DNA of 64,000 bases from an uncultured Candidatus Peribacteria bacterium (GTDB lineage: Bacteria > Patescibacteriota > Gracilibacteria > RBG-16-42-10): assembly GCA_964514565.1 (NCBI GenBank), contig CAZERA010000004.1, forward strand, positions 40,793 to 104,792, given 5' to 3'. This document shows, one piece after another, positions 561 to 62,724 of the stretch. The position numbers were made by a program, and so were the translations under genes. How positions within the stretch are numbered: the stretch's first letter is position 1; each line of letters starts with the position of its first letter. The notes under the pieces were generated by a model, which was given only the letters and a program-made list of their open reading frames with translations, had not been told where the DNA came from and made no database searches.

Positions 561-1796
561 TTACTGGGTGAAGATTTGAGTGACATACATTTCATCTGGA
601 CTTTCACCAACGATAATCCCGATCCCTACATGAGTATAGGGTATGTAGGTTCCTAGAATATTGAAAGCATGTGAGTAGAGATAGTTGCCATCGTCCCCTT
701 TTTCAAACATTTTATTGATAATGTCAGTGACGCGGTCTTCTGGAGTAGCATTGTCAAAGAAAGCATGAGCAATGTTTTGAGTAGCTTCACTGTAGCTAAT
801 GTCATATTTCTTACTTGCTAATGCAAACCATTGATCAAAAGTCTGACCATTGACGTTGCGGTGGGAGGTCCATGGTCGGCGTTTTTCTTGTTCGGTGAGG
901 TTAGCATGGCTAGTCTCGTATTCTTTCTTTTGTTGTTTATCCAAGAAATGCCATTGGTCATAAAGCTCTTGGCTTTGGTTTCTAGCAATACCAGAAAGTT
1001 TTTGATCAATTACCAGAGGAGCTTTTTTTTCAGTGGCCCGTTTCTCATTGATAGCAATTAGCATGCTTCTCTCTAGGTCAGTGATAGCAGGAAAAGTGGT
1101 GTCTTTGTCTTGGAGATAGTTGTCTAAAATCTTCACTGCCTCAGCGCGAGTGATTGGTGTATTGGGTAAAAATAAACCGTTGCTAGTCCCTTTGATATAG
1201 CCCAAAGCACGAGCGGAATAAATATAAGGGGCTAATTCATGGTTGGGAGACACATCGAGAAATGCCTCGCCAATATTATAGTCTTTGATCTCATTGTTGC
1301 TTGCAACAATAAAGATTTTCAAAAACTCGGCTCTACTGACTGACTTGGTAGGACGAAAAGTACGGTCACTATAACCTTTGACCATTTTTTTCTCGTAAGC
1401 ATACTTAATGAAAGGCAACAAAGTATCACTACTATCTACATCACCAAAAGGTACTGTCACTGATCCGCTTTGGGTGACAGGGCGATAGTTGCTGGTAGCC
1501 AAGGTGATTATTTTGGTTGTTTCTGCTCGAGTAAGTGGACGGTCTGGTCCAAAACTACCATCACTATAGCCATTGACGATTTTTTTCTTTACCACATTTT
1601 GAATAGCATCATAGGCCCAATATTGCTCATTGATGTCTCGGAAGATCACCTCCGGAGCACTAGTCACCGTACTAGTTGGTGTAGGGCTTGGTGTGCTGGT
1701 TGTTACACTAGTTGGTGTGGGTGTAGCCGTAGTAGCAGCCATTGCTGTGAATGGTGTAAACAACAGCAAGCTAATCAGAAGAAAGCGACGTAGCAT
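561..1796 (-). CDS. Secreted S-layer homology (SLH x3) protein with C-terminal CAP/SCP-like domain
   Basis: Signal peptide, T/P-rich linker, three SLH repeats (GYSDGSFGPDRPLTRAE, GYSDRTFRPTKSVSRAE, GTSNGLFLPNTPITRAE); CAP-like INEKR...PLVIDQKLSGIAR...NIA...HAFNILG..YTHVGIG. Confidence 0.85.
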   Translation of the reverse strand: MLRRFLLISLLLFTPFTAMAATTATPTPTSVTTSTPSPTPTSTVTSAPEVIFRDINEQYWAYDAIQNVVKKKIVNGYSDGSFGPDRPLTRAETTKIITLATSNYRPVTQSGSVTVPFGDVDSSDTLLPFIKYAYEKKMVKGYSDRTFRPTKSVSRAEFLKIFIVASNNEIKDYNIGEAFLDVSPNHELAPYIYSARALGYIKGTSNGLFLPNTPITRAEAVKILDNYLQDKDTTFPAITDLERSMLIAINEKRATEKKAPLVIDQKLSGIARNQSQELYDQWHFLDKQQKKEYETSHANLTEQEKRRPWTSHRNVNGQTFDQWFALASKKYDISYSEATQNIAHAFFDNATPEDRVTDIINKMFEKGDDGNYLYSHAFNILGTYIPYTHVGIGIIVGESPDEMYVTQIFTQ

Positions 1797-11187: not shown

Positions 11188-12277
11188 TTAGTCTTTATTA
11201 CGCAGATACCCCTCGATAAAAGGAAGGATCTCACCATCGAGTACTTTATTGACATCAGTCATCTCTACATTGGTTCGATGATCTTTAACCATAGTATAGG
11301 GATGCATGACATATGAGCGGATCTGATGTCCCCAGCTATTTTGATGTGAACCTTTGAGTTCTTTTAGCTCTAATTGTTTTTCAGCTAATTGAATAGCCAT
11401 CAATCGGTTCCGCAAGGTCTTCATCGCCAAGTCTTTATTCTGTAGCTGTGACCGTTCATTTTGACATTGCACCACTATACCTGATGGTATGTGAGTGATA
11501 CGGACAGCTGAGTCTGTGGTATTTACACCTTGTCCGCCATGTCCGCCAGCTCTGAAGACGTCTATCCTCAGATCATCAGGATTGATTTCAATACCGCTAG
11601 TGTCATCTAATACTGGAATTACTTCTAATAGCGCAAAGGATGTCTCGCGCGAGTGTTTGGCATTGTATGGTGAGATACGTACTAGTCTATGCACTCCGGA
11701 CTCCCCTTTGAGCATGCCGTAGGCATAGTCCCCTTTTACTTCGATAGTTACAGTCTTGATGCCAGCTTCTTCTGCTGGTGATAGGTCTAGTAGTTGGATT
11801 TTGAAATGATTGTTTTCGGCAAAACGGGAATACATTCTAAACAAAATATTGGCCCAGTCCTGGGCATCCACTCCTCCTGTGCCAGCGTGAATTGTGAGCA
11901 AGGCATTGTTGAGATCATAACGGCCGCTAAGCAGAGTCATCGTTTCGAACTGCAGAAAGTCTTGAACCAAGGCTGGTACTTGTTGGTGTAGTTCTTTGGC
12001 TAATTCGGGGTCGGTTTCGGTGGAAGTGATTTCTACTAATTGTTGTAGTTCAGTAAACTTCTCAGTCAAGCTTTCAATTGTGCTGATCAGTTTCTCTAGA
12101 TGATGAATCTTTTGGGTTGTGCTACGTGCAGCATTGGGATCAGACCAGAAAGTCTCTTTCTCGGTGGTCTGTACTAGCTCTGCATGTTGTTTTTGTAAGG
12201 TTGGGACGTCAAAGATATTCTCTCAGACGAGAGATCTTAGTGGATAGGTCGGTGAGTTGTTGTTTTAATTCGTGCAT
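11188..12277 (-). CDS. prfB: Peptide chain release factor 2, expressed by programmed +1 frameshift (22 codons + 340 codons)
   Basis: ATG at 12277 opens MHELKQQLTDLSTKISRLREYL then CTT TGA C; +1 shift to GAC at 12210 is in frame with the 11188-12069 ORF carrying GESGVHRLVRISPY, GGHGGQGVN, WGHQIRSY. Confidence 0.96.
12208..12223 (-). other. prfB programmed +1 frameshift site
   Basis: Minus strand AGAGAA TAT CTT TGA C; canonical CTTTGAC at 12214-12208. Confidence 0.93.
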
Positions 12278-12306
12278 AAAATAACTAGTGTCTACTTGCA
12301 GTATAC

Positions 12307-12343
12307 AAAAAAGCCCCGGGAGAGGAAATCTCCCGAGGCCTTT
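12307..12343 (-). terminator. Rho-independent terminator after the PKD gene
   Basis: Minus strand GGCCTCGGGAGA-TTTCC-TCTCCCGGGGCT followed by a T run. Confidence 0.85.
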
Positions 12344-12373
12344 AAGGTCATTTGAATTTGACGAATGGCAGGA

Positions 12374-15300
12374 TTAACGAACAGTGACGAAGAGATCAGG
12401 ACAATCGGTGCGATTGCCGAAACGATCTTGTAATGCACTATTGATACGGTATGTTCCTGGTACTGAGTAGTAGGCAGTACGTTGGAGTACATTGAATCCT
12501 TGGCTAGTATAGCCATTGTTAAAATTGATAGCACCCCAGAATGGACCATTCTCAGGATGTTCGGGTACAAACTCTACTGTAAATTGTACAGTTGCAGTAG
12601 GATTTGGTGTCACTACACGGAGGGCACGACATACCTGCCCACTCGTATTAGGAGCCTGAACACGTACTTCACCATTGGCACAGTTGGTAATACCACCGCG
12701 GCCATCATTGATTTGGATTTGGCTGATATACACACCATTATTGATATAAGCATGACTGCCAGTGCCTGTCGTGTTGCTTACACTCTCTCCGTCTCCGAAG
12801 AAATAAGTATATGTAAGAACATCATTATCACTGTCTCGTCCTACTACATGGAAATTGACAGCAGTTCCGACTGTGACTGGATTTGGGGTAATCTCAGTAC
12901 TGAGACAAATTGGTGCTGTATTGGCAACAGGGCTCACGGTCAAAGTAGCTGTATTTGCACAATTGACTGTGACATTCGCTGTGTCTCGTACTTGAGCAGT
13001 GATGGTGTAAATACCGGCATTGCTATAAGTATGATAGACAGGACTAATTCCAGAACTTTGATTTGTCGTGTCACCAAAGTTTACTATATAAGTCAAAGCT
13101 TGGTTGTCTGCATCAGTAGCATTTATAGTGATTCCAACTGGAGATCCCGCTACAGCAGTAGTAGGTACGCTGACAGTAGTACATACTGGAGCACGGTTAG
13201 TCGGGTTGCTGGTTACTGGAGGAACTGTAGGCGGTACTGCTGCACTGACGGTGAAGGTGACTTCAGCACAGTTGGTGCTACGGTTGCCATCACTAATACT
13301 AGTGCGGAGTACATAGGTACCTGGATTGGTATAGGTATGACGGATGACGTTGTTGGTACCAATGCTATCTGCTGTGCCGTCATTGAAGCGAGCAGTATAA
13401 CTAAGCGCGCTATTTTCTGGATCACGGGCGGTGATAGTGAGGACCATGTCTGTATTAACTGTCAGTGTAGTTCCTGGTGCGATATTCAAATTTTGACAAA
13501 GAGGAGCTTGATTAGTGGGAGAAGCAGGGGTGATACTAATAGTAATTGTGGTAACTGTAGGATTGCCTGGATTAGTTGGATTGGTCACACCACTGTTGGT
13601 GTTTGTACAACTAGTACTGAGACCACGACTATCTCGTACATTTACTGAAGCACTGAATGCACCATTGGCTGGATAACGATAAGTAGTAGTGTTTGTGGTC
13701 AAATCCCGACTATTGCCGTCACCGAAGTTGTAGGTATAAGTCAAAGCGTCATTGTCTGGGTCACTAGCTGCGACAGTAAATACAATGTCGGTAGTATTTG
13801 AACCAGTAATTGTGCTCACTACGAAAGTACATACTGGAGCACGGTTGGTTGTGTTAGGAGTAGTAATAACTACAGTGATATTTGTAGGAGTTGTGCCACC
13901 AGGAGGAGTAACTGAGCCTGTGTTGGTGTTGGTACAGTTTGTCCTGAGTCCCCGACTATCAGAAGCTGATACAGTAGCTACAAATGAACCTGCTGTAGTG
14001 TAGCGATGGGTAGTGGTATTGGTAGTAAGCGTACTACTGCTACCGTCACCGAAGTTGTAAGTATAAGTCAAAGCATCATTGTCTGGATCACTAGCACTGA
14101 TGGTGAAAAGTACATCAGTTGCTGTAGTGCTGGCTGTTGCATTGAGTACAAAACTACAAACTGGAGCACGGTTAGTTGGTGCTGGTGTAGTAGGTACTTG
14201 TACTACCACAGTGATAGTAGGATTGATGGTACCAGTCGCTACACATTGTCCGACTAAGCCACCTGGATCACGGACACTTGCTGTGATTGGATAGGTACTA
14301 GCTACTAAATAACGATGAGTTGTAGTAGCACTTGTTGTTTCTTGATTATTGCCGTCACCGAAAATATAGCTATATACTAAGGCATCACTGTCAGGATCGG
14401 TCGCATTTACTGTGTAAGTAACGACGTCATTGGTAGTTGGATTACTTGGAGCGATACTCATAGTACAGCTAGGAGCATGGTTGTTGGTACGTACTGTGAG
14501 TTGGATATCATTACAATTGCTGAGATTGATACCATCTGAAATACGAGCATGAATTAAACGGTTGCCAGCAGTGGTATAGGTACGAGAGCTTACGGGCCCT
14601 GTACTGATATAGCTATTGCCGTCACCGAAATCTACAGCATAAGTAAGTGCTTGATTCTCAGGATCAGTTGCTTGAATAGTAAAGGTAACGATGGCTCCAG
14701 TATAAGGACTAGTGTTGTCAGTAGTAATAGTACAAGTAGGTGCTAAATTGGGCCCAGTTGTAGGATTAGTAGTAGGTATACTAGTAGCTGTTGCTGTATT
14801 AGTAGGAGTAGCGGTAACTGTTGGAGTGCTGCTTGCGGTAGGAGTACTAGTTGCTGTTGGTGTGCTCGTAGCAGTGGGAGTGCTGGTAGGAGTTGCTGTA
14901 CTTGTTGGCGTACTAGTCGCAGTAGGAGTGCTAGTAGCGGTTGGTGTACTGGTTGCTGTAGGCGTACTAGTAGGACCAAAACGACTGACATTCAAAGTAA
15001 GAGCTGGACAGTTGGCTGTGAGGCCAGCACGGTCACTTACTTGGGCTGTGATGCTATAGGTACCAGGGGCGATATAATCATGAGCAGCTTGCGCTTGTAC
15101 ACTAGTAGCACGCATAGCACCATCACCGAAGTTGTAGCTATAGCTTAATCTATCTCCACTATCAGTGTCAGTTGCTTGTGCTTGGAATGTCACTACTACA
15201 CCTTCTTGAGGCATAGCATTGGACACAGTAATAGCAGTACAAACTGGTGCATGATTGGTAGGGGTACTAGTAGCAGTTGGTGTAGCGGTTGGGGTGCTAG

Positions 15301-16225
15301 TCACAGTAGGTGTGCTTGTTGCGGTGGGAGTAGAAGTCACAGTAGGTGTAGCAGTTGGAGTTGCTGTACTACCGGCGCCGACTGTAATTGTGCTATCACA
15401 ACGAACATAACCACCAGCTGTATCAGTGACACGAATACCAACGCCGTAGCTACCTGCTGCAGTATAAGTAAATTGAGCACTATTGGTTTGACCTACGCTA
15501 TCAAATGAACCGTTGTCTGTGAAGTCGAAAGCATAAGTAAATGGAGCACTACCACCGACTGCAGTGACCGTAAATGTAGTTGGTTGATTGACTTGAGCAG
15601 CTGAAGTAGCAAGTGTACATGCACTTAGTACTGGATTGCTGTTTGTCTCACTTGATTGACCAACGATACGGAAACCTCCGAATTCCACTTCGCCTTCGCC
15701 TGTACCAGCAATTTGCAGGCTAGTAACTGGGCTGGTGAGCGTGAAACCAGAGAAGTGATACATATCAAAAATCGCACTATCACCTTGGTCAGGAATATTG
15801 AAAGTACTGCTACCTGCACGGATGACAAGGTTCTCGTTTGCTTCAGCATTGGATTGGTTACCATAGCGGGCATTGAGATCAACATCATATTGACCAGCGG
15901 GAAGATTGATATTGAGAGTGATTGGAGCAGTCAGACTGCTGACACCACGAGCGTCGTTTGAGCGGTTGTAACCACCAAAGCTAGGATCGTAGGTACGGAT
16001 ATTGCCACCACTGACAGACAATGGAAACAAACTATCGATAGTTGTAGCTTCTGAAGCTAGACTCTTTGATCCATCGAGGAGGTTGATAAAGCCAGTGTTG
16101 TAGAAAGCAGCTTGGGTAGTCGGTACTACTGAGCTAATCCATTGATCTAGTCCGAGTACTTGGAAAGTAACAATCAGAGCCAGGCTCAATCCCACTATCT
16201 TTTTCCACAGGTTATTTTTTTGCAT
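12374..16225 (-). CDS. Large secreted PKD-repeat surface protein/adhesin (N-terminal beta-sandwich + 10 PKD/Ig-like domains + T/P-rich linkers)
   Basis: Signal/anchor helix; repeated NxAPxC...D.D.D.L.Y.Y.FGDG...H.Y...G.Y......D...C units; TPTATS linkers. Confidence 0.9.
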   Translation of the reverse strand: MQKNNLWKKIVGLSLALIVTFQVLGLDQWISSVVPTTQAAFYNTGFINLLDGSKSLASEATTIDSLFPLSVSGGNIRTYDPSFGGYNRSNDARGVSSLTAPITLNINLPAGQYDVDLNARYGNQSNAEANENLVIRAGSSTFNIPDQGDSAIFDMYHFSGFTLTSPVTSLQIAGTGEGEVEFGGFRIVGQSSETNSNPVLSACTLATSAAQVNQPTTFTVTAVGGSAPFTYAFDFTDNGSFDSVGQTNSAQFTYTAAGSYGVGIRVTDTAGGYVRCDSTITVGAGSTATPTATPTVTSTPTATSTPTVTSTPTATPTATSTPTNHAPVCTAITVSNAMPQEGVVVTFQAQATDTDSGDRLSYSYNFGDGAMRATSVQAQAAHDYIAPGTYSITAQVSDRAGLTANCPALTLNVSRFGPTSTPTATSTPTATSTPTATSTPTSTATPTSTPTATSTPTATSTPTASSTPTVTATPTNTATATSIPTTNPTTGPNLAPTCTITTDNTSPYTGAIVTFTIQATDPENQALTYAVDFGDGNSYISTGPVSSRTYTTAGNRLIHARISDGINLSNCNDIQLTVRTNNHAPSCTMSIAPSNPTTNDVVTYTVNATDPDSDALVYSYIFGDGNNQETTSATTTHRYLVASTYPITASVRDPGGLVGQCVATGTINPTITVVVQVPTTPAPTNRAPVCSFVLNATASTTATDVLFTISASDPDNDALTYTYNFGDGSSSTLTTNTTTHRYTTAGSFVATVSASDSRGLRTNCTNTNTGSVTPPGGTTPTNITVVITTPNTTNRAPVCTFVVSTITGSNTTDIVFTVAASDPDNDALTYTYNFGDGNSRDLTTNTTTYRYPANGAFSASVNVRDSRGLSTSCTNTNSGVTNPTNPGNPTVTTITISITPASPTNQAPLCQNLNIAPGTTLTVNTDMVLTITARDPENSALSYTARFNDGTADSIGTNNVIRHTYTNPGTYVLRTSISDGNRSTNCAEVTFTVSAAVPPTVPPVTSNPTNRAPVCTTVSVPTTAVAGSPVGITINATDADNQALTYIVNFGDTTNQSSGISPVYHTYSNAGIYTITAQVRDTANVTVNCANTATLTVSPVANTAPICLSTEITPNPVTVGTAVNFHVVGRDSDNDVLTYTYFFGDGESVSNTTGTGSHAYINNGVYISQIQINDGRGGITNCANGEVRVQAPNTSGQVCRALRVVTPNPTATVQFTVEFVPEHPENGPFWGAINFNNGYTSQGFNVLQRTAYYSVPGTYRINSALQDRFGNRTDCPDLFVTVR
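14760..14975 (-). repeat. Degenerate 18-bp coding tandem repeat (TPTATS linker)
   Basis: About 10-12 TPTA(T/S)S-like units; a shorter second block lies at about 15258-15370. Confidence 0.8.
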
Positions 16226-16258
16226 AGATTGAGTATGAAGTGAATAAGTAAAGAGGGA

Positions 16259-17488
16259 TTAGCGAACAAGTAAACCTGCGCCTACGCTACCGATGAAATT
16301 GGTAGTAGCACCATCAGTTGGTACTGATGCACCAGCTGAGATTTCGAAGAAACCTGCTGCACGGCGAGGGTTGCCATTGGTCAAAATGCGACCTGTTAGT
16401 TCAAATGGAACAGCTGTACGGTTTGTAGATCCTTCGATCACAAATGCATCGACACCAGTTCTGAAGCCAGCGCGGAGGATACTACCCCGGCCACCTTGAT
16501 ATTCAGCACCAATGCGACCACCAACATACCAAAGATCTGGACGGTTCAAAGTAACACCTGATCCCAATCTAGCGCTCATGAGCATGCTCCAGTGTTGACC
16601 AAAATGTCTACCAAGATGTGCTTCAATTGCTGGGATCACAGTAACGCGTACTGGACTTTCTGGTGCATTAGTTTCACCGACTTGAGCTGAACTAAATGTG
16701 CGATTCATACCTTCTGGACGAGTGGTAACATTGAATGTACGACTAACACCATTGCTAGTAACTTGCAGTGTGCTCAAGCTGTTGCCTGGGATAGCCACAG
16801 TAGCATTGCGTCCCATTCCTGGAGCGGCAGTGACCTCAGCTCCATTACTAGGAGTAATAGTATATTGATTGTTGCCGCCAGTGAATGTTAATGAACAAAT
16901 ATAACGACCACCAGCATTACCAGTAGCGCTACGTTCAGGTAGACAGTTGCCAGCTGAGACACCGAGATTGTTTTGTTGTGCCTCAGGATCGCGGAATAAA
17001 TTTGGTACAAATACTGTAGTAAGACCTACACCACCGAACCAACCAGTTTCTCTACCTCCACTAGTACTTTCTGCAATAGGAGCAGCTGGAGTTGCTTGTA
17101 GGTAGTTAATACTGTCTGATGGAGCTACATAAGTAGGAGTAGCAGCAACTGTTGGTTGAGCAACTACTGCTGGTGCAGCTGGTTGCTGAACTAGTGCTGT
17201 ACGGCTACCAGAAAAATCCATGTTGCCATTGTTAGTGGTAGGAGTTGCTGGTGTCGCAGTTACTATTGCTGTGACTGCATTACCTGCTGTTGAATCAACT
17301 GGAACAACATACACTGGGCGCAAGCGACCATGTGTTGGAGTTTGTGCGTGAGCCGTATTTGGCTTTGCAATAACTGCTGCACTCAAACCGGCTACGAGAG
17401 CTGCTATAGCTAATCTACTATCTGTACTGGTGGGGGTATGACGAGGTGAAACGCGGAGGGAATGTGCTGTGCTGATCTTACTTGCCAT
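16259..17488 (-). CDS. Secreted protein with low-complexity stalk and predicted beta-barrel-like C-terminal region
   Basis: Signal peptide ending AHA-Q; A/P/T-rich linker; series of Gly/aromatic amphipathic strands ending FIGSVGAGLLVR. The CDS is solid; the fold is inferred. Confidence 0.75.
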   Translation of the reverse strand: MASKISTAHSLRVSPRHTPTSTDSRLAIAALVAGLSAAVIAKPNTAHAQTPTHGRLRPVYVVPVDSTAGNAVTAIVTATPATPTTNNGNMDFSGSRTALVQQPAAPAVVAQPTVAATPTYVAPSDSINYLQATPAAPIAESTSGGRETGWFGGVGLTTVFVPNLFRDPEAQQNNLGVSAGNCLPERSATGNAGGRYICSLTFTGGNNQYTITPSNGAEVTAAPGMGRNATVAIPGNSLSTLQVTSNGVSRTFNVTTRPEGMNRTFSSAQVGETNAPESPVRVTVIPAIEAHLGRHFGQHWSMLMSARLGSGVTLNRPDLWYVGGRIGAEYQGGRGSILRAGFRTGVDAFVIEGSTNRTAVPFELTGRILTNGNPRRAAGFFEISAGASVPTDGATTNFIGSVGAGLLVR

Positions 17489-17514
17489 AAATATGGTTTA
17501 AAAGTAAAGGTGAG

Positions 17515-17543
17515 AATTTAACTGCTTTATCTGTTTTTGTCAA
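17515..17543 (-). promoter_or_regulatory. Sigma70-type promoter for the 17488/16225 operon
   Basis: Minus strand TTGACA-N17-TAAATT, 26 nt upstream of the ATG at 17488. Confidence 0.7.
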
Positions 17544-17633
17544 TGCCTAGTGGGGTATTTATAGCCAAATGAGTGAATTAGGGATGGGTAAAGGCATGCT
17601 TGTTGTGTTAGAATAATTCGATAGCAACTTTCT

Positions 17634-18296
17634 ATGCCACCACTTACCCCTACCTCCTCAGATACAGATGTGTCCCCCGTTCGTTTTCAACTCGCGGCTA
17701 CTGCCAGCGATTTCTACTTTCCGCTGCAGTCTCCTGCGGAGGATACGTATTTACCAACACAATATACTGCCCGAAACATTGTGCAAAGAAAAAAGAACCA
17801 AACGTCTTTGCGTGAAGCACTCAAGCTCGATACTACATTACCAATAGTAGGTGTGATCGTGAGTGGATTTAGCAAAAAACAATTAAAACTGTTGGAACAA
17901 ATTGTAGAAGCTAGTTTGGCACTGCCTTTGCAGCTGGTGTTGATCGGGGCAGATAAAGAGTTGGTGGTGGCAAAAAACAGCAAAGTTAAGAAAATGGTGA
18001 ATACGCCTGACCATATCCATTTATTTTTTGGTGCTGCTGATGTACTCGTCTTACCAGCGCAATCCAATGATGCATTGGTAGCTGCTTGTTTTCGCTATGG
18101 TTTGATACCAGTAGTACAGGACGATCAAACTTTGGTCCGTGATTATGATCCTGTATCAGAAGAAGGAAATGCTTTTTCTTACCAAGAAAATACAATTTGG
18201 TCTATCTATGCAGCTCTTATCCGAGCTATGGAGACCCATCGTTTGTCATATGATTGGCAAAGGATACAGCGGAATGGGTTGGATATGAGTGCCTGA
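17634..18296 (+). CDS. Stand-alone glycogen synthase (GlgA, GT5)-like C-terminal domain, degenerate
   Basis: KKNQTSLREALKL..LPIVGV, HLFFGAADVLVLP, RYGLIPVV, YDPVSEEGNAFSY, WQRIQRNGL match the GlgA C-lobe; the N-lobe and PSRFEPCGL motif are absent. Confidence 0.75.
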   Translation: MPPLTPTSSDTDVSPVRFQLAATASDFYFPLQSPAEDTYLPTQYTARNIVQRKKNQTSLREALKLDTTLPIVGVIVSGFSKKQLKLLEQIVEASLALPLQLVLIGADKELVVAKNSKVKKMVNTPDHIHLFFGAADVLVLPAQSNDALVAACFRYGLIPVVQDDQTLVRDYDPVSEEGNAFSYQENTIWSIYAALIRAMETHRLSYDWQRIQRNGLDMSA

Positions 18297-21621: not shown

Positions 21622-22530
21622 TTAATATTCACCTCTGATCATGGCAAGAGCAATTTTCTCTCGGACTGGATAATCAGTAGCGTTGGCTTTTTGGGGATTG
21701 TTGAGAATATCAACTCCCAATAAACCAATACATCGTAAAGCCCATACTGCTTGAACAGCTGCTTCCCCGTGCTGTGTTTTCAACAGTTTTAGTTCTTTGA
21801 TAATCAATGGCAAAGCTGCTTCTGGATCTGGATGTTCTAGTAAGGCAAAATCAAGGGCTCTGAGTACATCATAGAATGCTGCGCCAGGTCTTGGCTCAAC
21901 AGTGAGATCTAGTAGATGAGGTTGTTGCTGACGATCCAAAATAATATGTTCGCCATGAATATTGCCATGCACGAAACCAAAAAATTTTTGGGGATCTTGT
22001 CTGGCTAGTGCAAATAAAGTGTTTGAGAGTTGAAACGCTTCTGTGGGACTGAGTAATCCTTTTGCCATAATCTTTTCGATCCAAGCATGAAATACTCTTC
22101 CCATCCATCCATACGCTTGTTCTGTGTCGATATGTGATGGGAGGGTGTGATCTTTTTGGCATTCTTGCACAAAATTTTGATAGTCAGTACAAACTGCTTT
22201 ACTAATGCTAATCGTCCGAGCTAGATCAGTTCGATACAGTTTTTTTAGTTCCTGACCCTCAATATACTCCAGTAGTAAATATTCTGGATTAGTAATTGCA
22301 CTAGTGGGGTAAAATAGTTTTTGAGTTTTGAAACTAGTGCTACCTTTCCTTAAAGCGGCAACAAGTAACAATCGTAATTGATATCGTTCAATTTTGGCAC
22401 TTTTAAGGACCATTAAGCTTCCATCTGGGCCAATCACTTTGCGATTGTGTGATCGACCGTTCAGTACTTCACCTGTATCAGTGAGTTTATGATGAGCTAT
22501 CGCTTGTTGTACTGGAGATAGGTTTCTCAA
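21622..22530 (-). CDS. APH/choline-kinase-like phosphotransferase-fold protein (catalytic-loop Asp replaced: HGN)
   Basis: MVLK, YLLLEYIEG, FVHGNIHGEHII, LLDL, FYD motifs. Confidence 0.75.
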   Translation of the reverse strand: MRNLSPVQQAIAHHKLTDTGEVLNGRSHNRKVIGPDGSLMVLKSAKIERYQLRLLLVAALRKGSTSFKTQKLFYPTSAITNPEYLLLEYIEGQELKKLYRTDLARTISISKAVCTDYQNFVQECQKDHTLPSHIDTEQAYGWMGRVFHAWIEKIMAKGLLSPTEAFQLSNTLFALARQDPQKFFGFVHGNIHGEHIILDRQQQPHLLDLTVEPRPGAAFYDVLRALDFALLEHPDPEAALPLIIKELKLLKTQHGEAAVQAVWALRCIGLLGVDILNNPQKANATDYPVREKIALAMIRGEY

Positions 22531-22532
22531 GA

Positions 22533-23543
22533 TTAGTAGGTTGCTTCTATGAGGGCTTTACGAATTCTATTTCTAGCTTCTCTTTTGTATATATCTTCTG
22601 GCGGATCTTTTTGAATATCAGTACCAATTGCCAACATTCTTGCTCTGAGCACTGGCATTAGTAATGTGGGATCAAATTCCTCTTTGAGCCTTCTTACTGC
22701 GACCGATAAGCTTTCTCCAAGTTGAGCTGGTGTATGGCTATGTGCCACAATTGAATCTAACCCTCTGACTTTATCATAAAAACCTCTACCAGGTTTTACT
22801 TGAGCGTTGAGATCAAGCAAGTAAGGTTTTACTTCTTTGCGTTTGTTTTCAGGTAATACTTTTAAATCTGGTGTTAGAATATGTTTAGCATGAATGTCTC
22901 CATGGGCAAATCCAATATATTCTTTCCCGTACTTTCTATAATTGTTGCTTAAATCAAGCACAATTTGGGTGATCGCTCGAGCTGAAGCAGGTGTGGTTCT
23001 CATCATTTTTGCTTCCCATACAGCTACTGCGGCTAAAAAACGGGCCATTCCTCTAGCAGCAACAACTGCAGAAATTGTAGTTGTTGGTATATATGCTTTT
23101 AAAACAGATTGATAATCATTTGCTGTTGCAAGTAGAATACCTACCGCTTCTTCATTTCCACCAAAAAACATGCCCTCAGTCCTTTTGTTTACTTTAGTTA
23201 CTTCTGAAAGAGGGGCTTGTTCGATTAGATCAGTGATATAATAACTAGGTTCGCCTGGTCTGCTAATATAATGAAGTTGAGGTACTTGAAAACTAAGGTT
23301 TAATTCCGCAGCAGCTTTCATCAATCCGATTTCATGAGTATTGATAGCGCTGCCGTATTTTACTACTACAGTTCTATTGTTATTTGCTTCTAAGTATCCT
23401 AGTCCTTCATCAGGTCGCATGCCTTTTCTTAATTCCTCTCTAATTGTTGCTTTTACAACATCATGCTTTCCCATTTTTTCTCTAAACTCAAGTCCATGTT
23501 TGGCAGCGATAAAATTCAATGTTGCTGAAGGTGATTTGTTCAT
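22533..23543 (-). CDS. APH/choline-kinase-like phosphotransferase-fold protein
   Basis: VVVK, HE, VPQL, YYITDLIE, FAHGDIHAKHIL, LLDL, FYD motifs. Confidence 0.75.
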   Translation of the reverse strand: MNKSPSATLNFIAAKHGLEFREKMGKHDVVKATIREELRKGMRPDEGLGYLEANNNRTVVVKYGSAINTHEIGLMKAAAELNLSFQVPQLHYISRPGEPSYYITDLIEQAPLSEVTKVNKRTEGMFFGGNEEAVGILLATANDYQSVLKAYIPTTTISAVVAARGMARFLAAVAVWEAKMMRTTPASARAITQIVLDLSNNYRKYGKEYIGFAHGDIHAKHILTPDLKVLPENKRKEVKPYLLDLNAQVKPGRGFYDKVRGLDSIVAHSHTPAQLGESLSVAVRRLKEEFDPTLLMPVLRARMLAIGTDIQKDPPEDIYKREARNRIRKALIEATY

Positions 23544-40378: not shown

Positions 40379-42088
40379 TTAATTGCTGCTACAGCTTGTG
40401 GCGGTTACTGCTGAGCTAGTATTGCCTGAATTATTGCTGATAGCAATATTAGAGGTAGCATGACTAGAGATGAGACAAAGCCCATCTGAGCTTAGGCTAT
40501 TATTATTGAATCGATTGGCACTAATCGTGATATCGTCGCTGCTTGCTTTTGGCGCGTTGCCAGCTCTGAATTCAATCAAGACACCGTGGTTGTTATTGAA
40601 GGTATTGTTTTGGATCTTTACATTGCTAGCATCATAGATTCCTAGAGCGCCATATTGATTGTTGGTCAAAGTGTTTTGTTCAAATCGGACATTGATTGCT
40701 TCGTACTGTCTACCACGTAGTAGTTCACTGTCAGTCCAGCCACCAATACCCCAGGCTGGGTCCCCTGCTCCGCTGCGTTGGCCACTGATAGTGTTGCCAG
40801 TAATTACTACATTTGTACTGCCGCCTTTGACATAACCAGCTAGATTGCCAAAGTCGGTCATCATATTGTCTCTGATCGCACTATCATCTGTATCGACAAA
40901 GTCGATCAATTCTTGCCAACAGTTTTCTTCTGGACAGCCTGGTCGAGCTCCTGAGCGAGCGAGTTCGTTGTTTTGGACGATGATGTGATTGGATTGGTTT
41001 ACTTTAATCACATCGCCATCGCTACCAGCATCATGGGACTTGATATTTTGGAGGGTAATATTGTTGGCATTTTGGACATGGATATTATTGTCTCCCATGC
41101 CGTATACTTCTAATCCGTCTATCACGATATATGCAGCATTGTCTCCTATGTTGATACCTTCCTCAGGGGAGCCCGTTAGTTTTGCACTATATTTGTCACC
41201 CGCGGAACGGATAATGATAGGATTATTGGCTGTGCCTTGTTTGTCTATCCAGAGCTGATGTGACAGTCGATAGATACCTGCTGCCAAGATAATTTCGTCT
41301 CCTGGCTCAGCATTGCCGATTGCCGCTCGTAGGTCAGCTTCAGTACTCACTGCTACTTGATGTGAGCCATGAGGTGAATTGATAGTAGGCAGGGTGAAGC
41401 TGCCTGTGTCCCCTACTGTTTGTGTCTGTTGTGGGGTAGGCGTCGGTATAGTAGATGGTAATGAGCTGGCTGTATCCATGATGTGACTGATCACCTTGCT
41501 CATCTCTGCTCTGGTCAATAAACCATTGGGACGGAATGTTCCATCTGAATACCCATTTACTAGTTCTAATCTAGTCGCTGTGGCTACATAACTGCTATAC
41601 CACGCTGCTTTGTCCACATCTTTGAAATTGCTGATGCCACTAACATTGATACTGTAAACTAGAAAAAGTATTTTCAAAGCTTCAGCTCTAGTTACTGGTT
41701 GATTTGGTAAGAACTTTTTACCTTGCGCACAGCTATCACTGATACCATTGATTCCTTTGCTTGCCAGCAAGGCGGCAAATTCATGGGCCCAGTCGCTAGT
41801 AGGGATATCACAAAATACTTTGTCAGTACTGACCATTGCAACGGGCAATTTGCCTTTGTACTGAGCTGACTTTATCGCCATCTTTGCTAGCTCAGCTCGA
41901 GTGATCGAACGATTGGGATAGAAGTTGCTTACTTGAGTATTGATGATGTCTCCAGCATCCAGCTGATCAACATATTCCGCAAACCAATCTTGATTGCGCA
42001 CATCTTGGAAATTGTGTGCTTGTACCAGGGCTACTGGCAAGCTCAAAAAGACCAACAAACCACTCAGTAGTTTTTTAGGTAGCTTCAT
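40379..42088 (-). CDS. Secreted SLH x3 protein with right-handed parallel beta-helix (pectin-lyase-like) domain
   Basis: SLH repeats (ITRAELAK, VTRAEALK, GYSDGTFRPNGLLTRAE); AAIGNAEPGDEIILAAGIY, G..NNPIII, repeated I..N Asn-ladder coils. Confidence 0.88.
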   Translation of the reverse strand: MKLPKKLLSGLLVFLSLPVALVQAHNFQDVRNQDWFAEYVDQLDAGDIINTQVSNFYPNRSITRAELAKMAIKSAQYKGKLPVAMVSTDKVFCDIPTSDWAHEFAALLASKGINGISDSCAQGKKFLPNQPVTRAEALKILFLVYSINVSGISNFKDVDKAAWYSSYVATATRLELVNGYSDGTFRPNGLLTRAEMSKVISHIMDTASSLPSTIPTPTPQQTQTVGDTGSFTLPTINSPHGSHQVAVSTEADLRAAIGNAEPGDEIILAAGIYRLSHQLWIDKQGTANNPIIIRSAGDKYSAKLTGSPEEGINIGDNAAYIVIDGLEVYGMGDNNIHVQNANNITLQNIKSHDAGSDGDVIKVNQSNHIIVQNNELARSGARPGCPEENCWQELIDFVDTDDSAIRDNMMTDFGNLAGYVKGGSTNVVITGNTISGQRSGAGDPAWGIGGWTDSELLRGRQYEAINVRFEQNTLTNNQYGALGIYDASNVKIQNNTFNNNHGVLIEFRAGNAPKASSDDITISANRFNNNSLSSDGLCLISSHATSNIAISNNSGNTSSAVTATSCSSN

Positions 42089-55408: not shown

Positions 55409-55448
55409 CATCTCTTTGCGTATATTGAGCATGTTCTTAATCCCTCTT

Positions 55449-57236
55449 ATGAAAAAGTTTGTCGGCTTTCTCCTAGCTGTTTTAGTTTTATTTACCTCTG
55501 CTGGAGTGACTCAAGCATCAGTGTTTAGTGATGTTTCTGATTCACATCCCAACTTTACAGCGATCCAGTTCCTTCGTAGTCGCGGTATCATCAATGGCTA
55601 TGAGGACGGTACATTCAAACCCGACCGTGCTGTAAGCCGAGCCGAGTTTTTGAAGATTGTGCTCCTTTCTTCTGGTAACCCCATCTTAACTGGTGATTTA
55701 GATCGTTCCGGGTTTAGTGACGTATTACTCAGTGCTTGGTATGCGGGGTATGTAAATAGAGCATTAGCACTCGGTGTTGCTAGTGGTTACCCTGATGGTT
55801 TATTTAGACCAGATCGAACTGTGAGCCGTATCGAAGCTGTAAAGATGATGCTGCGATCAAATCGTATTACTGAGGCTAGTCTCAGCACTGACGCAAGCTT
55901 CAGTGATATTGAGTCTGGTAGTTGGGCTATCCCTTACGCTCGTTTTGCCCAAGTTGCGCATTTGTTTGATGCTTTGCCAGGTAACTTGATGCATCCTAAT
56001 GAAGCAATGACTCGCGCGCAGGTTGCTGAAATGGTTTATCGTTTTTATCAATATCGTCCAGATTTGTTGCCTGCGGCTCCTCTTCCCACTACACCAGCAA
56101 CAACTACACCTACTGCATCTCCTTCAGCCAGTCCTACAGTAGCTCCAACCACTCCAACTAGTGAGTCCTTGCGTATTTCTAGTCTGACTGTGACTCCAGA
56201 AGCTCCTAACGTCAGTGCTGGATGTGCTAGTACAGTCTATTACACCTTTATCGGAAGAATAGTGACCAATGGTAGTGTAGGTACGTTTGCCTATCACTGG
56301 GAAGGTGAGAACAGCTATCGTAGTGCTGATCAAAGCTTTACTACTACTGCCGGTGTATCTGATTACAATTTTCGTCATGATGCTGGTTCACCAGGTACTG
56401 GTGTCTACAATGCTTGGAGACGCCTTTATGTTGGTGCCCCTTACAACAATGTTTCTTCTGCTGCTACCATTAGTATTGATTGTTCACACTCTACAGTCAC
56501 ATCTCCTACTCCTCCGGCAAGTTCTTCAATGTTAGTCACCAGTGTGGGTTTGAGCGCAAGTGGTCCTACTGAGGCTAGAGCTTTATGTTCAGCTACTACT
56601 AATGTAGCTGTGAAAGGTGGTTTGAGCACCAATGGTCAACCAGGAACAATTCGTTATTATTATGATCTAGGGGACGGACGTCGCTCACCAGAAAGGACTT
56701 ATACCTTTGCAGTAGGTGAGAGTAGTATTGGTACTTCAGTGATTAATTACTCAGCATCTTATGATACCAATCATGTTGCTCGCAGTGGATCTATTCGTTT
56801 AGTTGTTACTTCACCAAATAACATGAGTAGCGGCGGTGTGAGCTACAATCTACGTTGTGCTGATAGTGATTTACCTACTAGCCATCGTGTGACTGCTGCT
56901 AGCTTTACTGCTCAGCAACCGGGCGTCCGCGATGGTACTTGGGTTTGTGGTGCGACTAACAATTTTACATTGCGTGGCCGTTTGACCTTAGCGACTCCAC
57001 CAGCTGGTGGTCGCATCGCTTACAATTGGTTGTTTAATACTGGTGCTACATCACCCACTCAAACAATCGACGTAAGTACAACATTGACCAACCCGATAGT
57101 TTTACCAGACTACATCTGGAGTATCCCCGCTTCAGCCAGTGAGGGAGCCTATATTGCTTGGCTCAATGTACTCACTCCAAACGCTTTAGTCTCTGACTCA
57201 TGGAGTATCACAAAACCAAGATGTTTTAGTTTGTAG
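55449..57236 (+). CDS. Secreted SLH x3 protein with three Cys-paired Ig-like domains
   Basis: MKKF signal peptide; GYEDGTFKPDRAVSRAE, GYPDGLFRPDRTVSRIE, MTRAQVA; P/T linker; three roughly 110-aa beta-rich repeats each bounded by Cys. Confidence 0.88.
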   Translation: MKKFVGFLLAVLVLFTSAGVTQASVFSDVSDSHPNFTAIQFLRSRGIINGYEDGTFKPDRAVSRAEFLKIVLLSSGNPILTGDLDRSGFSDVLLSAWYAGYVNRALALGVASGYPDGLFRPDRTVSRIEAVKMMLRSNRITEASLSTDASFSDIESGSWAIPYARFAQVAHLFDALPGNLMHPNEAMTRAQVAEMVYRFYQYRPDLLPAAPLPTTPATTTPTASPSASPTVAPTTPTSESLRISSLTVTPEAPNVSAGCASTVYYTFIGRIVTNGSVGTFAYHWEGENSYRSADQSFTTTAGVSDYNFRHDAGSPGTGVYNAWRRLYVGAPYNNVSSAATISIDCSHSTVTSPTPPASSSMLVTSVGLSASGPTEARALCSATTNVAVKGGLSTNGQPGTIRYYYDLGDGRRSPERTYTFAVGESSIGTSVINYSASYDTNHVARSGSIRLVVTSPNNMSSGGVSYNLRCADSDLPTSHRVTAASFTAQQPGVRDGTWVCGATNNFTLRGRLTLATPPAGGRIAYNWLFNTGATSPTQTIDVSTTLTNPIVLPDYIWSIPASASEGAYIAWLNVLTPNALVSDSWSITKPRCFSL

Positions 57237-57322: not shown

Positions 57323-60300
57323 TTACTTCTTACCTTCTCTGTAGTAAAACCCCATCCCAATAATATACAATGGGAAAAGTGGGAAAAATAAGATCTTGTG
57401 CCACCAAGGTAATAATTGAAAGCTGCGTGACAACCAACGGAAGAAGATGAATAAAATTGGAGTAGTAATCAGTGAAGTGAAGCCAGATGTGATCAAACCA
57501 AAAATAATTACCAAGGAAATAGAACGATAAAATTCACTTAGCAATGCCAATGGCGCTAAAGAAGCAATGGCTGTGAGTTTAGTGAGAATTACCGGACGGA
57601 AGCGAATGCCGGAGGCAAAACTGATTGCCCGTTTTTCTTCCCAGCCATCATTGTTGATTTTTTGGCGTGCTGCATCAATCAAAAATATCGCTACATTTTC
57701 CACGATACCAACTAAAATAATTAACCCAATGATTTCCAAGAAACCAAATTCGCCAGTGCTAAAGGTAGCTAGAGCAGGAAAGACACCAATAAATGTCAGT
57801 GGCACAGTAAACAAAATTACCAATGGTTGCCCAAGTGAACCAAAGAATACTGCCAGTACAAAGTAACTGAGTACAATTGCTAGTAGCAATGCTAGCAATA
57901 GCTCTTGGAATGATTTAGCAAAGCCAGCACTGCTACCTTCACTATATTGTTCAATGCTATTGTCACTCAGTCCTAGTTTTTCACTTTCAGCGAAGTTATT
58001 ATCATTGTAATACTTCGTTATAGCTTGAGTGATCTGAGCTGAAACACTTTCATTGTCATCTTGCTCACGGATTCTTCCTTGCACCACACCGACAATCTGA
58101 CCTTTGACCCCTTGGATAGTATCTTTTGGTAGGTTTGGTACTAGGGCTGCAATAGCACTAATATTATATGGATCTCCTACACTGTTTTTGACGATAGCCA
58201 TGCTCAGATCCTGAGCCTGAGCAGGGTCAAGTGTTTGTTTGTCTAGGAATACCTCAGTATCTTTGCCTGCCACTTTGATCGAACCTACTTTTTTCTCGTC
58301 TGCTACATTGAAAAGACGTTTTACTTGTTGATTGAGTAGTCCAGTCAGTGGGCCACTAGGGGCCACAAACTGATTGTTATAAAGATCACTACGATCGATG
58401 GTGATATCTAATGCTTTGTTTTCTTTACCATTGTAGCCGTCATCTACTCGAGAGATGAGTTTGTTGGCATCTGCACATTGGAGATTTACTGTGATCTTGT
58501 CGTTTTCTTTACACACCATAGCCAAGGTCGTACCCACTGATTTTGCTGCTTTTTCTAAGACAGTCAGATCATCTGTTTTTACAGCAAGTGAAACTTTAAA
58601 TGCGGTTGCTGGTGGTGCATTGCCTCGTACACTTATTTGAAAGTCAAAAAAGTAAGGTCCAAATTTGTTGATGATTTCGGTTTGTAGTTTTTTCGCGATA
58701 TCAACTGAAATAGTACCAGGGCGTTCTTCAGCAGGTAGCAGCTCTACCTGGAGGTTCAAGCCTTTGCCTAAAGGAAATATTTGTTTAACCTCGGGATCAC
58801 TAGCTACAATTTCGCTGATTTGTCTTCGGATGGCTTGGGTCTCTGTGCTGTTTTTAGTAGGTAAAAAAGTACCGATTACTGATAAATACTTGCTGTTTTG
58901 ACTGCTGGCAAATTGCACAAATTTAATTTTGCCACTACTGATCAAAGATCCAGTAATCATGAATGGCGTGACCAAAGCAACCACAATAATCAAAAGCCTG
59001 ACCCATACTTTGCTATGCAAAATACGGTAGTTGAGCTTGATCAGTTGTTGGGCAATCCCCCATAAGTTTTTCTCTTCATCATGACCTTTACCTTTCGTAG
59101 GACGTAAGAAACTACTACCAATCCAAGCTAAGATTACTAATGGTACGATATAAGACCCAATAGTTGATGGAATAATTGTGAGTGGAATATAGCCGAAGAT
59201 TTGGCCTAGTACTCCTGAAATAATACCAAATGGTGCGAATACAATAATATTTGTTAGAGCCGCTAAAAATAAGCCACCACCCACATCTTTGACTGCCAGC
59301 AATGCTGCATCTTTGCCTCGATGTCCCAGATCTATTTGTCTTTGAATACTTTCCAAGATTACCAAGGCAGGATCTACTACTAGACCCAATACCAGTACTA
59401 GAGAAAACAATACCAAAGTATTGAGACTCTCTCCGATGAAGAAGACATAGATCAGGGAGAATAGCAGACTGAGTGGAATCGCTAAGGCTGATACGATAGC
59501 TGCTCGCCATGATACAAAGATCAACATGGCCAAGAATACTAATTGGATACCACCAAGTAGCCAACCCAGATCGGCGAATGGGCTTTTGGTTTTTAATTTG
59601 CTACCAATCAATCCACCGACCACCTCATCTACTTGTTCTTTGGTGCTATCATTGGCAGATAGATTGTTGATAAGGAATACAGGCTTACTAGTATCTAATG
59701 TCCCAGCATGATCAAGTACAGCAATATCTGGTAAATTGGCTATCTTGCTCAACATCGTTTGAGCATACGCATTTTTATCTGCTCCATCGGCAGTACGAAT
59801 AGTGACTACCAAAGCTGGAAGTACTTGTTCCGTGCCTTTAGTATGGATACCTACATAACTAATAGTATTGTTTTCAAAGTAATAGTCTAGCTTTACTTCT
59901 GCCAAATCACTCAAAGGGATACTGCTACTGGTTGTCCCTTTGGCAGGATTGGCGCTGGTATAGATTTTGAGCTGTTGGAGGCTATTCAAATCATCACCTG
60001 CAAGTTTAGTAGAAATAGTCTGGCTCTCACCGTCCAATGTTGTATTACTGATTACTGGTAGGGTCTCACCGACACTACTGATTTGTCTTTGAACTTCATC
60101 TACCGTCAGGCCAGCGTTGCTGATGGCATCGAGATTTAAGTTGATCAATACGCGTTGTTTGAGATCAGCTAGTGGTGCAATACTACTGGTCTCGGCAATT
60201 TCGTTGAGACTGTTTCTAAATTTATCCCAGTTTTGGTAAAGTTTTTGTTTGTTGTTTGAGGCAAGTGAAAGAATAAAATCTGGGCTGCCAATAGTAGGCA

Positions 60301-60706: not shown

Positions 60707-60710
60707 AAGC

Positions 60711-62630: not shown

Positions 62631-62724
62631 AGTACGATAGATCAAGAGATTAGATTCGGAGCGGGATTGGACGTTTTTGGTTTTAATGTTTAAATATACG
62701 CTCACTACCTTAAAAGTCAATATG

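Follow-up and report, generated by a model that had tools for sequence, protein, structure and literature searches.

A predicted outer-membrane-type beta-barrel protein encoded in a Peribacteria genome without detectable outer-membrane biogenesis genes

The barrel gene and its locus

Outer-membrane β-barrels are regarded as a hallmark of cells with two membranes, and they require Omp85/BamA for assembly. Here we describe a 64-kb stretch of DNA (64,000 nucleotides of contig CAZERA010000004.1, hereafter the window) from an uncultured Candidatus Peribacteria bacterium, a member of the candidate phyla radiation (CPR). One open reading frame (ORF) in the window, the barrel gene, encodes a putatively exported protein that is predicted to end in an eight-stranded barrel of outer-membrane type. 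A preliminary description, made from the sequence alone, had pointed to such a barrel in what was presumed to be a monoderm. Reading from the N-terminus, the barrel protein would consist of a signal peptide, a conserved motif, a stalk, the first strand of the barrel, an inserted β-sandwich and the seven remaining strands. The positions of these parts and of the neighbouring features are given in Table 1.

Table 1. Features of the barrel gene and its surroundings, in window coordinates
Feature	Position	Strand	Basis
Whole ORF (P0001), 409 aa + stop	16259..17488	-	full-length conservation in relatives
Sigma-70-like promoter candidate, TTGACA / 17 nt / TAAATT, 10/12 matches	17515..17543	-	consensus match only
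Putative signal peptide, residues 1-48: long conserved n-region, 16-residue h-region, A-H-A|Q	17345..17488	-	reading and alignment
Conserved motif at N-terminus of mature protein (N-motif), residues 54-72, GRLRPVYVVPVDSTAGNAV	17273..17329	-	8-member alignment
A/T/P-rich stalk, residues 73-145	17054..17272	-	predicted disordered, pLDDT <50
Predicted barrel strand 1, residues 149-162	17003..17044	-	AlphaFold2; pLDDT block at 151-160 = 91
Predicted loop-1 insert, residues 163-281 (119 aa), eight-stranded β-sandwich with C182 and C198	16646..17002	-	AlphaFold2 model
Predicted barrel strands 2-8, residues 282-409	16262..16645	-	AlphaFold2, fold comparison, language-model neighbours
Downstream gene, 1283-aa secreted protein, conserved N-terminal domain and 9 PKD repeats	12374..16225	-	ORF list, Pfam
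Terminator-like hairpin past the PKD gene, possible end of a two-gene unit	12219..12234	-	pattern match only
GlgA-like protein, 220 aa, with a match to glycogen/starch synthase GlgA confined to the C-terminal half of that enzyme	17634..18296	+	NCBIfam E 2.6e-17, far below family cut-off
SLH surface protein	561..1796	-	Pfam scan
SLH surface protein	40379..42088	-	Pfam scan
SLH surface protein	55416..57236	+	Pfam scan

The putative promoter, a pattern match, lies 27 nt upstream of the start codon. A look-up of RNA runs for positions 12300-17700 of the window gave none. The gene is present in a single copy, the paralogue count having been proposed as a check in the preliminary description: when the 3,928 six-frame ORFs of the genome were searched with separate hidden Markov models for barrel, insert and N-motif, the gene itself was each time the sole match (next-best E-values 0.34, 0.73 and 0.62, respectively).

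The GC content of the gene (0.475) is above that of the window (0.413), as might be expected if it were foreign, either a diderm contaminant brought in by binning or assembly or a recent transfer now decaying. Its GC content at third codon positions (GC3), however, is 0.261, compared with 0.353 in the neighbouring uvrA, and so is AT-rich like the host genome. The higher overall value arises because the protein is rich in Gly, Ala, Pro, Arg and Thr, which acts through codon positions 1 and 2, and not from foreign codons. On its 105-kb contig the gene also has a central position, with uvrA to one side and prfB-type housekeeping genes to the other. The gene order uvrA, GlgA-like protein (on the opposite strand), barrel gene, giant secreted protein is the same in all five genomes that hold the family, which belong to two genera, and the frame is intact in each of them. 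No relative was found beyond this taxonomic family among 1.84 billion representatives. A foreign origin would therefore seem extremely improbable; the gene is native and under selection.

Predicted fold of the C-terminal domain

The C-terminal part of the protein is predicted to be a closed eight-stranded up-and-down barrel of the OmpA/NspA/OprF-N/OmpW type, the fold class being a computed one. In the AlphaFold2 model, which closes the eight strands into a barrel, DSSP places these at residues 149-162, 282-296, 300-313, 316-331, 338-351, 357-369, 378-390 and 397-408, giving strands of 12-16 residues. The eight amphipathic strands that had been read from the sequence are the same segments, with ends that agree to within 1-4 residues. 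Values of the predicted local distance difference test (pLDDT) for blocks within the barrel are 81-92, except for two across turns (65 and 78), and the five models agree closely, with a mean pLDDT of 58-64 that is lowered by disorder in half of the chain. The two termini are on the same face, as in OmpA, and the turns there are of 3, 6 and 8 residues, while the opposite face carries the 119-residue insert and connections of 2, 5 and 6 residues. The earlier statement that short turns alternate with longer loops is not borne out; apart from the insert every connection is short.

A structural comparison (VIA) of the model against 48,161 solved chains was carried out. The ten best matches were all small outer-membrane barrels, one of them designed, with Z-scores of 13.5-17.4 (Table 2). 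Soluble eight-stranded barrels came below these at Z 8.5-12.7: two designed barrels at 12.7 and 11.8, Cap15 at 11.3, DynF at 11.0, avidins at about 10 and YceI at 9.1, with the best three aligning over 101-111 residues. A soluble sandwich or a lipocalin-like barrel, either of which would have spoken against the preliminary description, was thus not found among the best ten. In a Foldseek search, also suggested there, all eight matches at E ≤ 1e-3 were outer-membrane barrels, though TM-scores of 0.10-0.31 and root-mean-square deviations (rmsd) above 20 make the likeness to those larger porins a local one only.

Table 2. Ten best structural matches of the AlphaFold2 model among 48,161 solved chains
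Match	Z	rmsd	Residues aligned/total
NspA (1p4t)	17.4	3.0	147/155
Legionella Dot/Icm porin III	16.8	2.4	147/224
OprF N-domain (4rlc)	16.3	2.0	127/135
OmpA (3nb3, 2ge4)	16.0	2.3	127/137
Thermus TtoA (3dzm)	16.0	2.4	134/208
OmpW (2f1t)	15.8	2.8	150/183
Designed transmembrane barrel (6x9z)	14.8	2.0	116/120
CarO	14.2	3.5	137/213
PagL (2erv)	13.8	2.9	131/146
OprH	13.5	7.3	141/178

Language-model searches gave a similar picture. With residues 278-409 as the query, all 30 named neighbour clusters were sets of outer-membrane barrels with scores of 0.93-0.94 (TraO 14, OMP_b-brl 8, YfaZ 3, "OMP beta-barrel" without a common Pfam family 2, and Tsx, DUF6646 and PagL 1 each). These share 106-125 of 256 features with the barrel part, which would fit the same kind of protein but not the same family. 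The search of the Atlas with the whole protein gave scores of 0.85-0.88, under the 0.9 line.

Since soluble barrels also match the model, a ligand-binding barrel like those of lipocalins, avidins, YceI or DynF was considered, in which an inward hydrophobic pocket would scavenge host lipids or isoprenoids for lipid-auxotrophic cells. The accessible part of the Peribacteria genome paper describes the source of fatty acids as unclear (PMC4736985), which would suit such a role. The membrane barrels, however, score 3-5 Z units above the soluble ones and cover 127-150 residues, and there is no lipocalin, avidin or YceI among the 30 named neighbours. The conservation of the strands, described below, also bears on this possibility.

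It might alternatively be argued that the barrel is an artefact of prediction, and that an open sheet, a sandwich or part of a larger oligomeric barrel has been closed by AlphaFold2 on the strength of outer-membrane protein (OMP)-like patterns. The alignment held only 8 sequences, the predicted template modelling score (pTM) of the whole chain is 0.42, the amphipathicity reaches only z 2.2, and the Foldseek superpositions on large porins are poor. Against this, the five models agree and the barrel blocks have the pLDDT values given above, the model superposes on real eight-stranded barrels with an rmsd of 2.0-2.4 over 127 residues, and the strand segments with their Gly, Arg and Glu positions are kept in relatives of 20-25% identity. 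We consider an artefact very unlikely.

Conservation of the two strand faces

Each strand of the barrel was split by residue parity into two faces and invariance was counted over 10 sequences. One face is apolar (12 Val, 8 Ala, 7 Gly, 6 Phe, 5 Leu, 4 Ile), with a mean Kyte-Doolittle value of +1.81 and only 1 of its 55 positions invariant. The other is polar (11 Gly, 6 Arg, 5 Ser, 5 Leu, 4 Glu), with a mean of -0.49 and 7 of 56 positions invariant, namely Gly309, Arg325, Gly341, Gly345, Gly386, Pro390 and Gly405. On the same face Glu289, Arg307 and Glu363 are each conserved in at least 8 of the 10 sequences. Asp347 is retained by 7 of the 8 closer members. The aromatic residues of the apolar face lie towards the two ends of the barrel, with Trp150/Phe151, Phe296, Trp300, Tyr330 and Phe381 on the rim at the termini side and Phe160, Trp320 and Phe398 on the opposite rim.

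A variable apolar face and a conserved face of Gly, Arg and Glu would fit a lipid-facing outside and a packed polar core, as far as the sequences can tell. Although alternation by itself cannot distinguish the inside of a barrel from the outside, a soluble barrel with a hydrophobic core is disfavoured because it would show the reverse pattern of conservation. Here it is the polar face that holds the seven invariant residues, five of them glycines, and the conserved Arg and Glu, while the apolar face varies among Val, Ile, Leu, Phe and Met. Taken with the structural comparison, this makes the soluble ligand-binding barrel improbable.

Export signal, stalk and insert

The lone hydrophobic stretch of the N-terminal part spans residues 22-44 and is followed by a predicted cleavage site at Ala46-His47-Ala48|Gln49. 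By reading, the pattern A-x-A|Q is kept in 10/10 aligned members, taking the form V-x-A|Q in P0008. Twin-arginine export, a lipoprotein anchor and LPXTG sorting were also considered, and inspection of the sequence revealed neither a twin-Arg motif, nor a lipobox Cys, nor an LPXTG sortase signal. The n-region of the signal peptide is unusually long, at about 24 residues (S-L-x-x-S-P-R-H-T-P-T-R-T), and is conserved family-wide (alignments A2 and A3). By analogy with extended signal peptides elsewhere it may serve as a sorting cue.

In the N-motif, Leu56, Val59, Val62, Ser66 and Gly69 are invariant across 8 members. Residues 51-150 are rich in Ala, Thr, Pro and Val (17, 15, 12 and 11 per 100, respectively), in agreement with the signal peptide and A/P/T stalk that had been described from the sequence. 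The stalk is the fastest-evolving part of the protein, with 50-63% identity among close relatives compared with 92-98% for the barrel and insert and 93-98% for the barrel taken by itself. The two most distant members, of 530 and 488 residues (L004:1453-3042 (-) in G005 and L005:844-2307 (-) in G003), carry additional sequence in the stalk region, and for this reason the stalk seems to be a site of module gain. P0009 has 6 Cys in total, and P0010 has 2, both in the stalk, without the conserved pair of the insert.

The insert between strands 1 and 2 had been described as a β-rich domain of about 115 residues with two Cys. At 119 residues it is modelled with eight short strands (pLDDT 72-83 in the whole-chain model) and contains Cys182 and Cys198, a pair found in all of the 8 closer members and in 9/10 sequences of alignment A3. 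When folded alone it gave a pLDDT of 73.3 and a pTM of 0.65. The fold is predicted to be a generic Ig/FN3-like one: the best structural match has Z 6.4, no chain reaches Z ≥ 8, Foldseek returned no match at E ≤ 1e-3, and the matches are mixed (FN3, Ig, S-layer SbsC, intimin and leukocidin rim domains, Z ≤ 6.4).

Family distribution

By investigating several kinds of search we arrived at a family of 12 distinct members, a count that includes a protein read from locus L003. An exhaustive phmmer search over 1,835,955,588 representatives gave 4 proteins. A further set of 5 relatives came from word-seeded searches, to which a profile added 2 identifiers, one of them (P0011) matching P0010 in length and C-terminus. 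A search of loci with a four-sequence alignment gave one locus, L008, while the same search with P0001 alone gave 168 pattern matches and no relative. Among 61 genomes of related organisms, the family is found in the source genome and in 4 of the 7 other genomes of its taxonomic family, and in none of 53 from other families. A profile of the barrel alone matched 5 of 301 genomes of the class, all five being sources of the profile, and so added nothing new. The eight strand segments are retained with their Gly, Arg and Glu positions down to 20-25% identity.

No known relatives were detected outside the family. The barrel protein matches no Pfam family at E ≤ 1 and no relevant NCBIfam model; the OMP families of Pfam gave no match in 10/10 members at E ≤ 10, and the family profile gave none against the sequences of the PDB at E ≤ 10.

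Envelope genes of the source genome

The source genome comprises 1,117,677 bp in 7 contigs and is 92.66% complete. Profile searches found no Omp85/BamA, LpxC, OEP/TolC or secretin in it, nor any OMP_b-brl (PF13505, E ≤ 0.1), FadL/Toluene_X or OmpA_C. Each of the outer-membrane control searches was positive in 3-7 of 14 reference genomes. The genome does encode two sortases, for which the control was positive only in the three Gram-positive references. Among the genes of the window itself are three for SLH-domain proteins, one for MurJ and one for a D-Ala-D-Ala carboxypeptidase. The SLH domains are fused to a CAP domain in one protein, a right-handed β-helix in another and an unassigned Cys-containing repeat region in the third.

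The 4 other genomes with the family likewise yielded no Omp85. Across the class it was matched in 2 of 301 genomes and in none of the 253 of good quality. The two matches are at L014 (G008:C69) and L015 (G234:C97); the first, from a bin with 6% contamination, is interrupted by a TAA stop and sits on a contig of only 2.6 kb, and the second comes from a bin of 72% completeness. Both are likely to be contamination.

The cell looks monoderm-type, and by computation the genes of outer-membrane biogenesis are absent from the source genome. This agrees with the earlier expectation that CPR cells would be without BamA and an LPS (lipopolysaccharide) pathway, and the finding that would have told against the preliminary description from this side, a diderm with BamA, was not made. 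As the structural comparison had also placed every soluble eight-stranded barrel below the outer-membrane ones, an OMP-type barrel in a monoderm-type CPR genome stands. The observation of the ORF is confirmed and its interpretation is partly supported; entry into a host outer membrane, self-insertion and an unrecognised envelope layer would be three candidate explanations, among which the analysis does not choose.

The available portion of the Peribacteria genome paper reports S-layer genes, sortase A and large extracellular proteins (PMC4736985). According to a review, the small number of CPR so far described are monoderm and information on their walls is scarce (PMC8871954).

The PKD neighbour

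The gene for the giant secreted protein starts 33 nt past the stop codon of the barrel gene, with no terminator-like site in the gap. The N-terminal domain of the protein has 34 invariant columns among 5 sequences, and the protein has neither an LPXTG motif nor a C-terminal hydrophobic anchor. Both proteins are almost free of lysine, which makes up 0.5% of the barrel protein and 0.3% of the PKD protein (4 of 1283 residues), the median for the 49 ORFs of the window being 6.4%. Together with the SLH protein encoded at 55416..57236 (1.2% Lys) they are the three most lysine-poor of these ORFs, while Arg is normal, and members of the barrel family have 0-3 Lys each. The shared scarcity of lysine suggests exposure of the barrel protein and its neighbour to one common environment. 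Giant surface proteins bearing PKD domains have been proposed to act in host recognition and attachment in a related CPR predator (PMC8080830).

A link to the CPR Pam pilus, as described in the accessible part of PMC13278184, was considered and not adopted. The NCBIfam model PamR touches the PKD neighbour weakly (E 1.2e-07 and 30.9 bits, the cut-off being 300) and the barrel protein matches no Pam model. On the other side of the barrel gene, the divergent GlgA-like protein (219-255 residues) is present in 5/5 genomes.

Comparison with known barrel proteins

By fold, the barrel protein is predicted to be a small outer-membrane barrel. With NspA, OmpA, OprF-N, OmpW, TtoA and PagL it shares a closed up-and-down fold (Z 13.8-17.4, rmsd 2.0-3.0 over 127-150 residues), termini on one face, an apolar face with aromatic ends, a conserved face of Gly, Arg and Glu, and a Sec signal peptide. 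It differs from them in having no sequence match to any of them, a host without BamA, LPS or TolC, and a C-terminal Arg in place of an aromatic residue. The loops are all short in the barrel protein except loop 1, with its 119-residue domain. Compared with OmpA, the soluble extension is an N-terminal stalk instead of a C-terminal peptidoglycan-binding domain, and one "extracellular" loop is enlarged to a domain. Because there is no sequence match and no terminal aromatic, and the genome is without the β-barrel assembly (BAM) machine or an outer membrane, we do not place the protein in any curated OMP family. A sandwich in loop 1, an A/T/P stalk and a PKD protein as partner would be specific to this family of barrels.

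The order of parts is also that of the OmpM/SlpA tethers of diderm Terrabacteria, in which, in the available parts of two reports, an N-terminal SLH wall-binding domain is followed by a long linker and a C-terminal barrel (PMC10628300, PMC9388160). In both cases a cell-proximal N-terminal element would be joined through an extended linker to a C-terminal barrel of outer-membrane type, and the source organism does carry SLH domains on other surface proteins. The barrel protein has none itself, however, the SLH matches of the Pfam scan falling in three other window-encoded proteins. As a linker it has a disordered A/T/P stalk and not a coiled coil, and the hosts of OmpM and SlpA have an outer membrane and BamA. 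OmpM and SlpA also have barrels of more than eight strands.

The designed transmembrane barrel 6x9z resembles the model in being a minimal eight-stranded barrel with short loops, and indicates that such a barrel is possible without a family history. It differs in being synthetic, without a stalk, an insert or a biological context. Designed transmembrane barrels fold into bilayers without BAM.

Discussion

We propose that the barrel protein may be a Sec-exported surface protein with a closed, monomeric C-terminal barrel, the exterior of which would have an apolar belt and aromatic girdles and the interior a conserved lining rich in Gly, Arg and Glu, judging by the strand faces. The barrel would serve as a membrane-type anchor that folds, without the BAM machine, into a lipid layer beyond the cell wall. 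This could be the outer layer of the cell's own envelope or a host membrane at the contact zone, and the analysis does not separate the two. From the face of the termini the stalk of about 75 residues and the N-motif would reach back toward the cell, while the disulfide-type Ig/FN3-like sandwich on the opposite face would be the exposed, binding end. The barrel protein and the anchorless giant PKD protein would be made from one promoter and most likely form one attachment module. For the barrel as a membrane-type anchor, on the basis of the model, we would put the probability at about 0.45, a little short of even odds. We infer the lipid-facing exterior, the self-insertion, the location and the partnership with the PKD protein.

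The same features might be explained without any lipid. An OMP-like barrel could act as a rigid connector that joins the stalk to the Ig-like tip, with its belt buried in a homo-oligomer, an S-layer lattice or the PKD protein. The absence of outer-membrane genes from the source genome would be accounted for directly, and surface proteins of SLH or S-layer type are present in the organism, both in the window and in the accessible text of the genome paper (PMC4736985). The PKD neighbour, anchorless and always adjoining, could provide a partner surface, and the order of stalk, barrel and sandwich suits an adhesin with its binding site at the tip. Strands of 12-16 residues with 5-6 alternate apolar residues each and flanking aromatics, on the other hand, have the length needed to span a bilayer, and the neighbours found by the language model are all membrane barrels. 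No solved eight-stranded barrel is known to us in which an apolar belt of this kind is buried in protein. Overall a connector outside any lipid seems unlikely, although it is the alternative that we would take most seriously.

Returning to the membrane-type anchor, a number of observations weigh against it. CPR cells are not known to have a lipid layer beyond the wall, and neither an insertion machine nor a periplasmic chaperone was found. The sequence provides no link between the barrel protein and any OMP family. The fold depends on a model with the shallow alignment and low whole-chain pTM given above, and we infer the hydrophobic exterior from the strand faces and their conservation. A crude estimate of side-chain volume, asking which face fits inside an n=8 barrel, gave 75 versus 65 cubic angstroms per residue where about 57 are available, and so does not separate the faces. 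The mean dyad moment is 0.96 compared with 0.71 ± 0.12 in shuffled sequences (z 2.2), a value reached by 37 of 2000 shuffles, and six further ORFs of the window have 128-residue windows with a higher moment than the barrel. The strength of the signal thus comes from structure prediction and fold comparison and not from the raw alternation pattern; the OMP-type signature claimed in the preliminary description holds by the former and is weak by the latter. The term "outer membrane" is also absent from the part of the Peribacteria genome paper that was available (PMC4736985).

The C-terminus of the barrel protein (...GAGLLVR) lacks the terminal aromatic residue as well. This had been noted from the sequence and is correct for the protein, but does not extend to the family: of the C-termini of the 12 distinct members, 8 end in Arg (...LLVR, ...EVR, ...FQR, ...RFR) and 4 in Phe or Tyr (...VEF, ...AEF, ...VQY). 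That the terminal aromatic occurs in the family but is dispensable would fit a cell without a BamA to read it.

The predicted topology does not favour any one location. The cytoplasmic membrane is an unlikely home because one face of the barrel would have to return to the cytoplasm. For a layer outside the wall, the inward stalk and outward sandwich would present no difficulty, yet no such layer, nor genes for its biogenesis, are known here. With the insert and the stalk on opposite sides, entry into a host membrane would require a whole domain to cross it, which is a further point against the anchor.

In its widest form the proposal would be that Peribacteria, and perhaps many CPR, place genuine transmembrane β-barrels without Omp85 in a lipid layer beyond the wall, this being either an unseen layer of scavenged host lipid or the host membrane, and that the barrel protein is the self-inserting anchor of a giant PKD adhesin. 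In that full form we regard it as rather unlikely. No report of such barrels in CPR was found in the literature searched, outside of which lay subscription journals and bioRxiv supplements. A conserved, native OMP-type barrel in CPR without BamA leaves three options: an unseen lipid layer, barrels planted in hosts, or a non-membrane use of the OMP fold. Which of the three applies matters for our view of attachment and feeding in episymbionts, and for the debate about gain and loss of outer membranes. Should the barrel prove to be a self-inserting anchor beyond the wall, it would be the first BAM-independent system of β-barrel membrane proteins in bacteria and would offer a handle on the docking of CPR cells to their hosts.

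Other genes in the window

An AcrB-type RND transporter (1127 residues) adjoins an HlyD-type adaptor (669 residues) at 57323..62720 (-), in a genome without OEP/TolC. As judged from sequence, the pair would make up a pump of two parts, in a cell lacking an outer membrane. Two adjoining ORFs of 302 and 336 residues at 21622..23543 (-) have no Pfam match, but by eye their C-terminal regions follow a similar pattern (H-G-D/N-I-H ... L-L-D-L), suggestive of divergent kinase-like proteins encoded in tandem.

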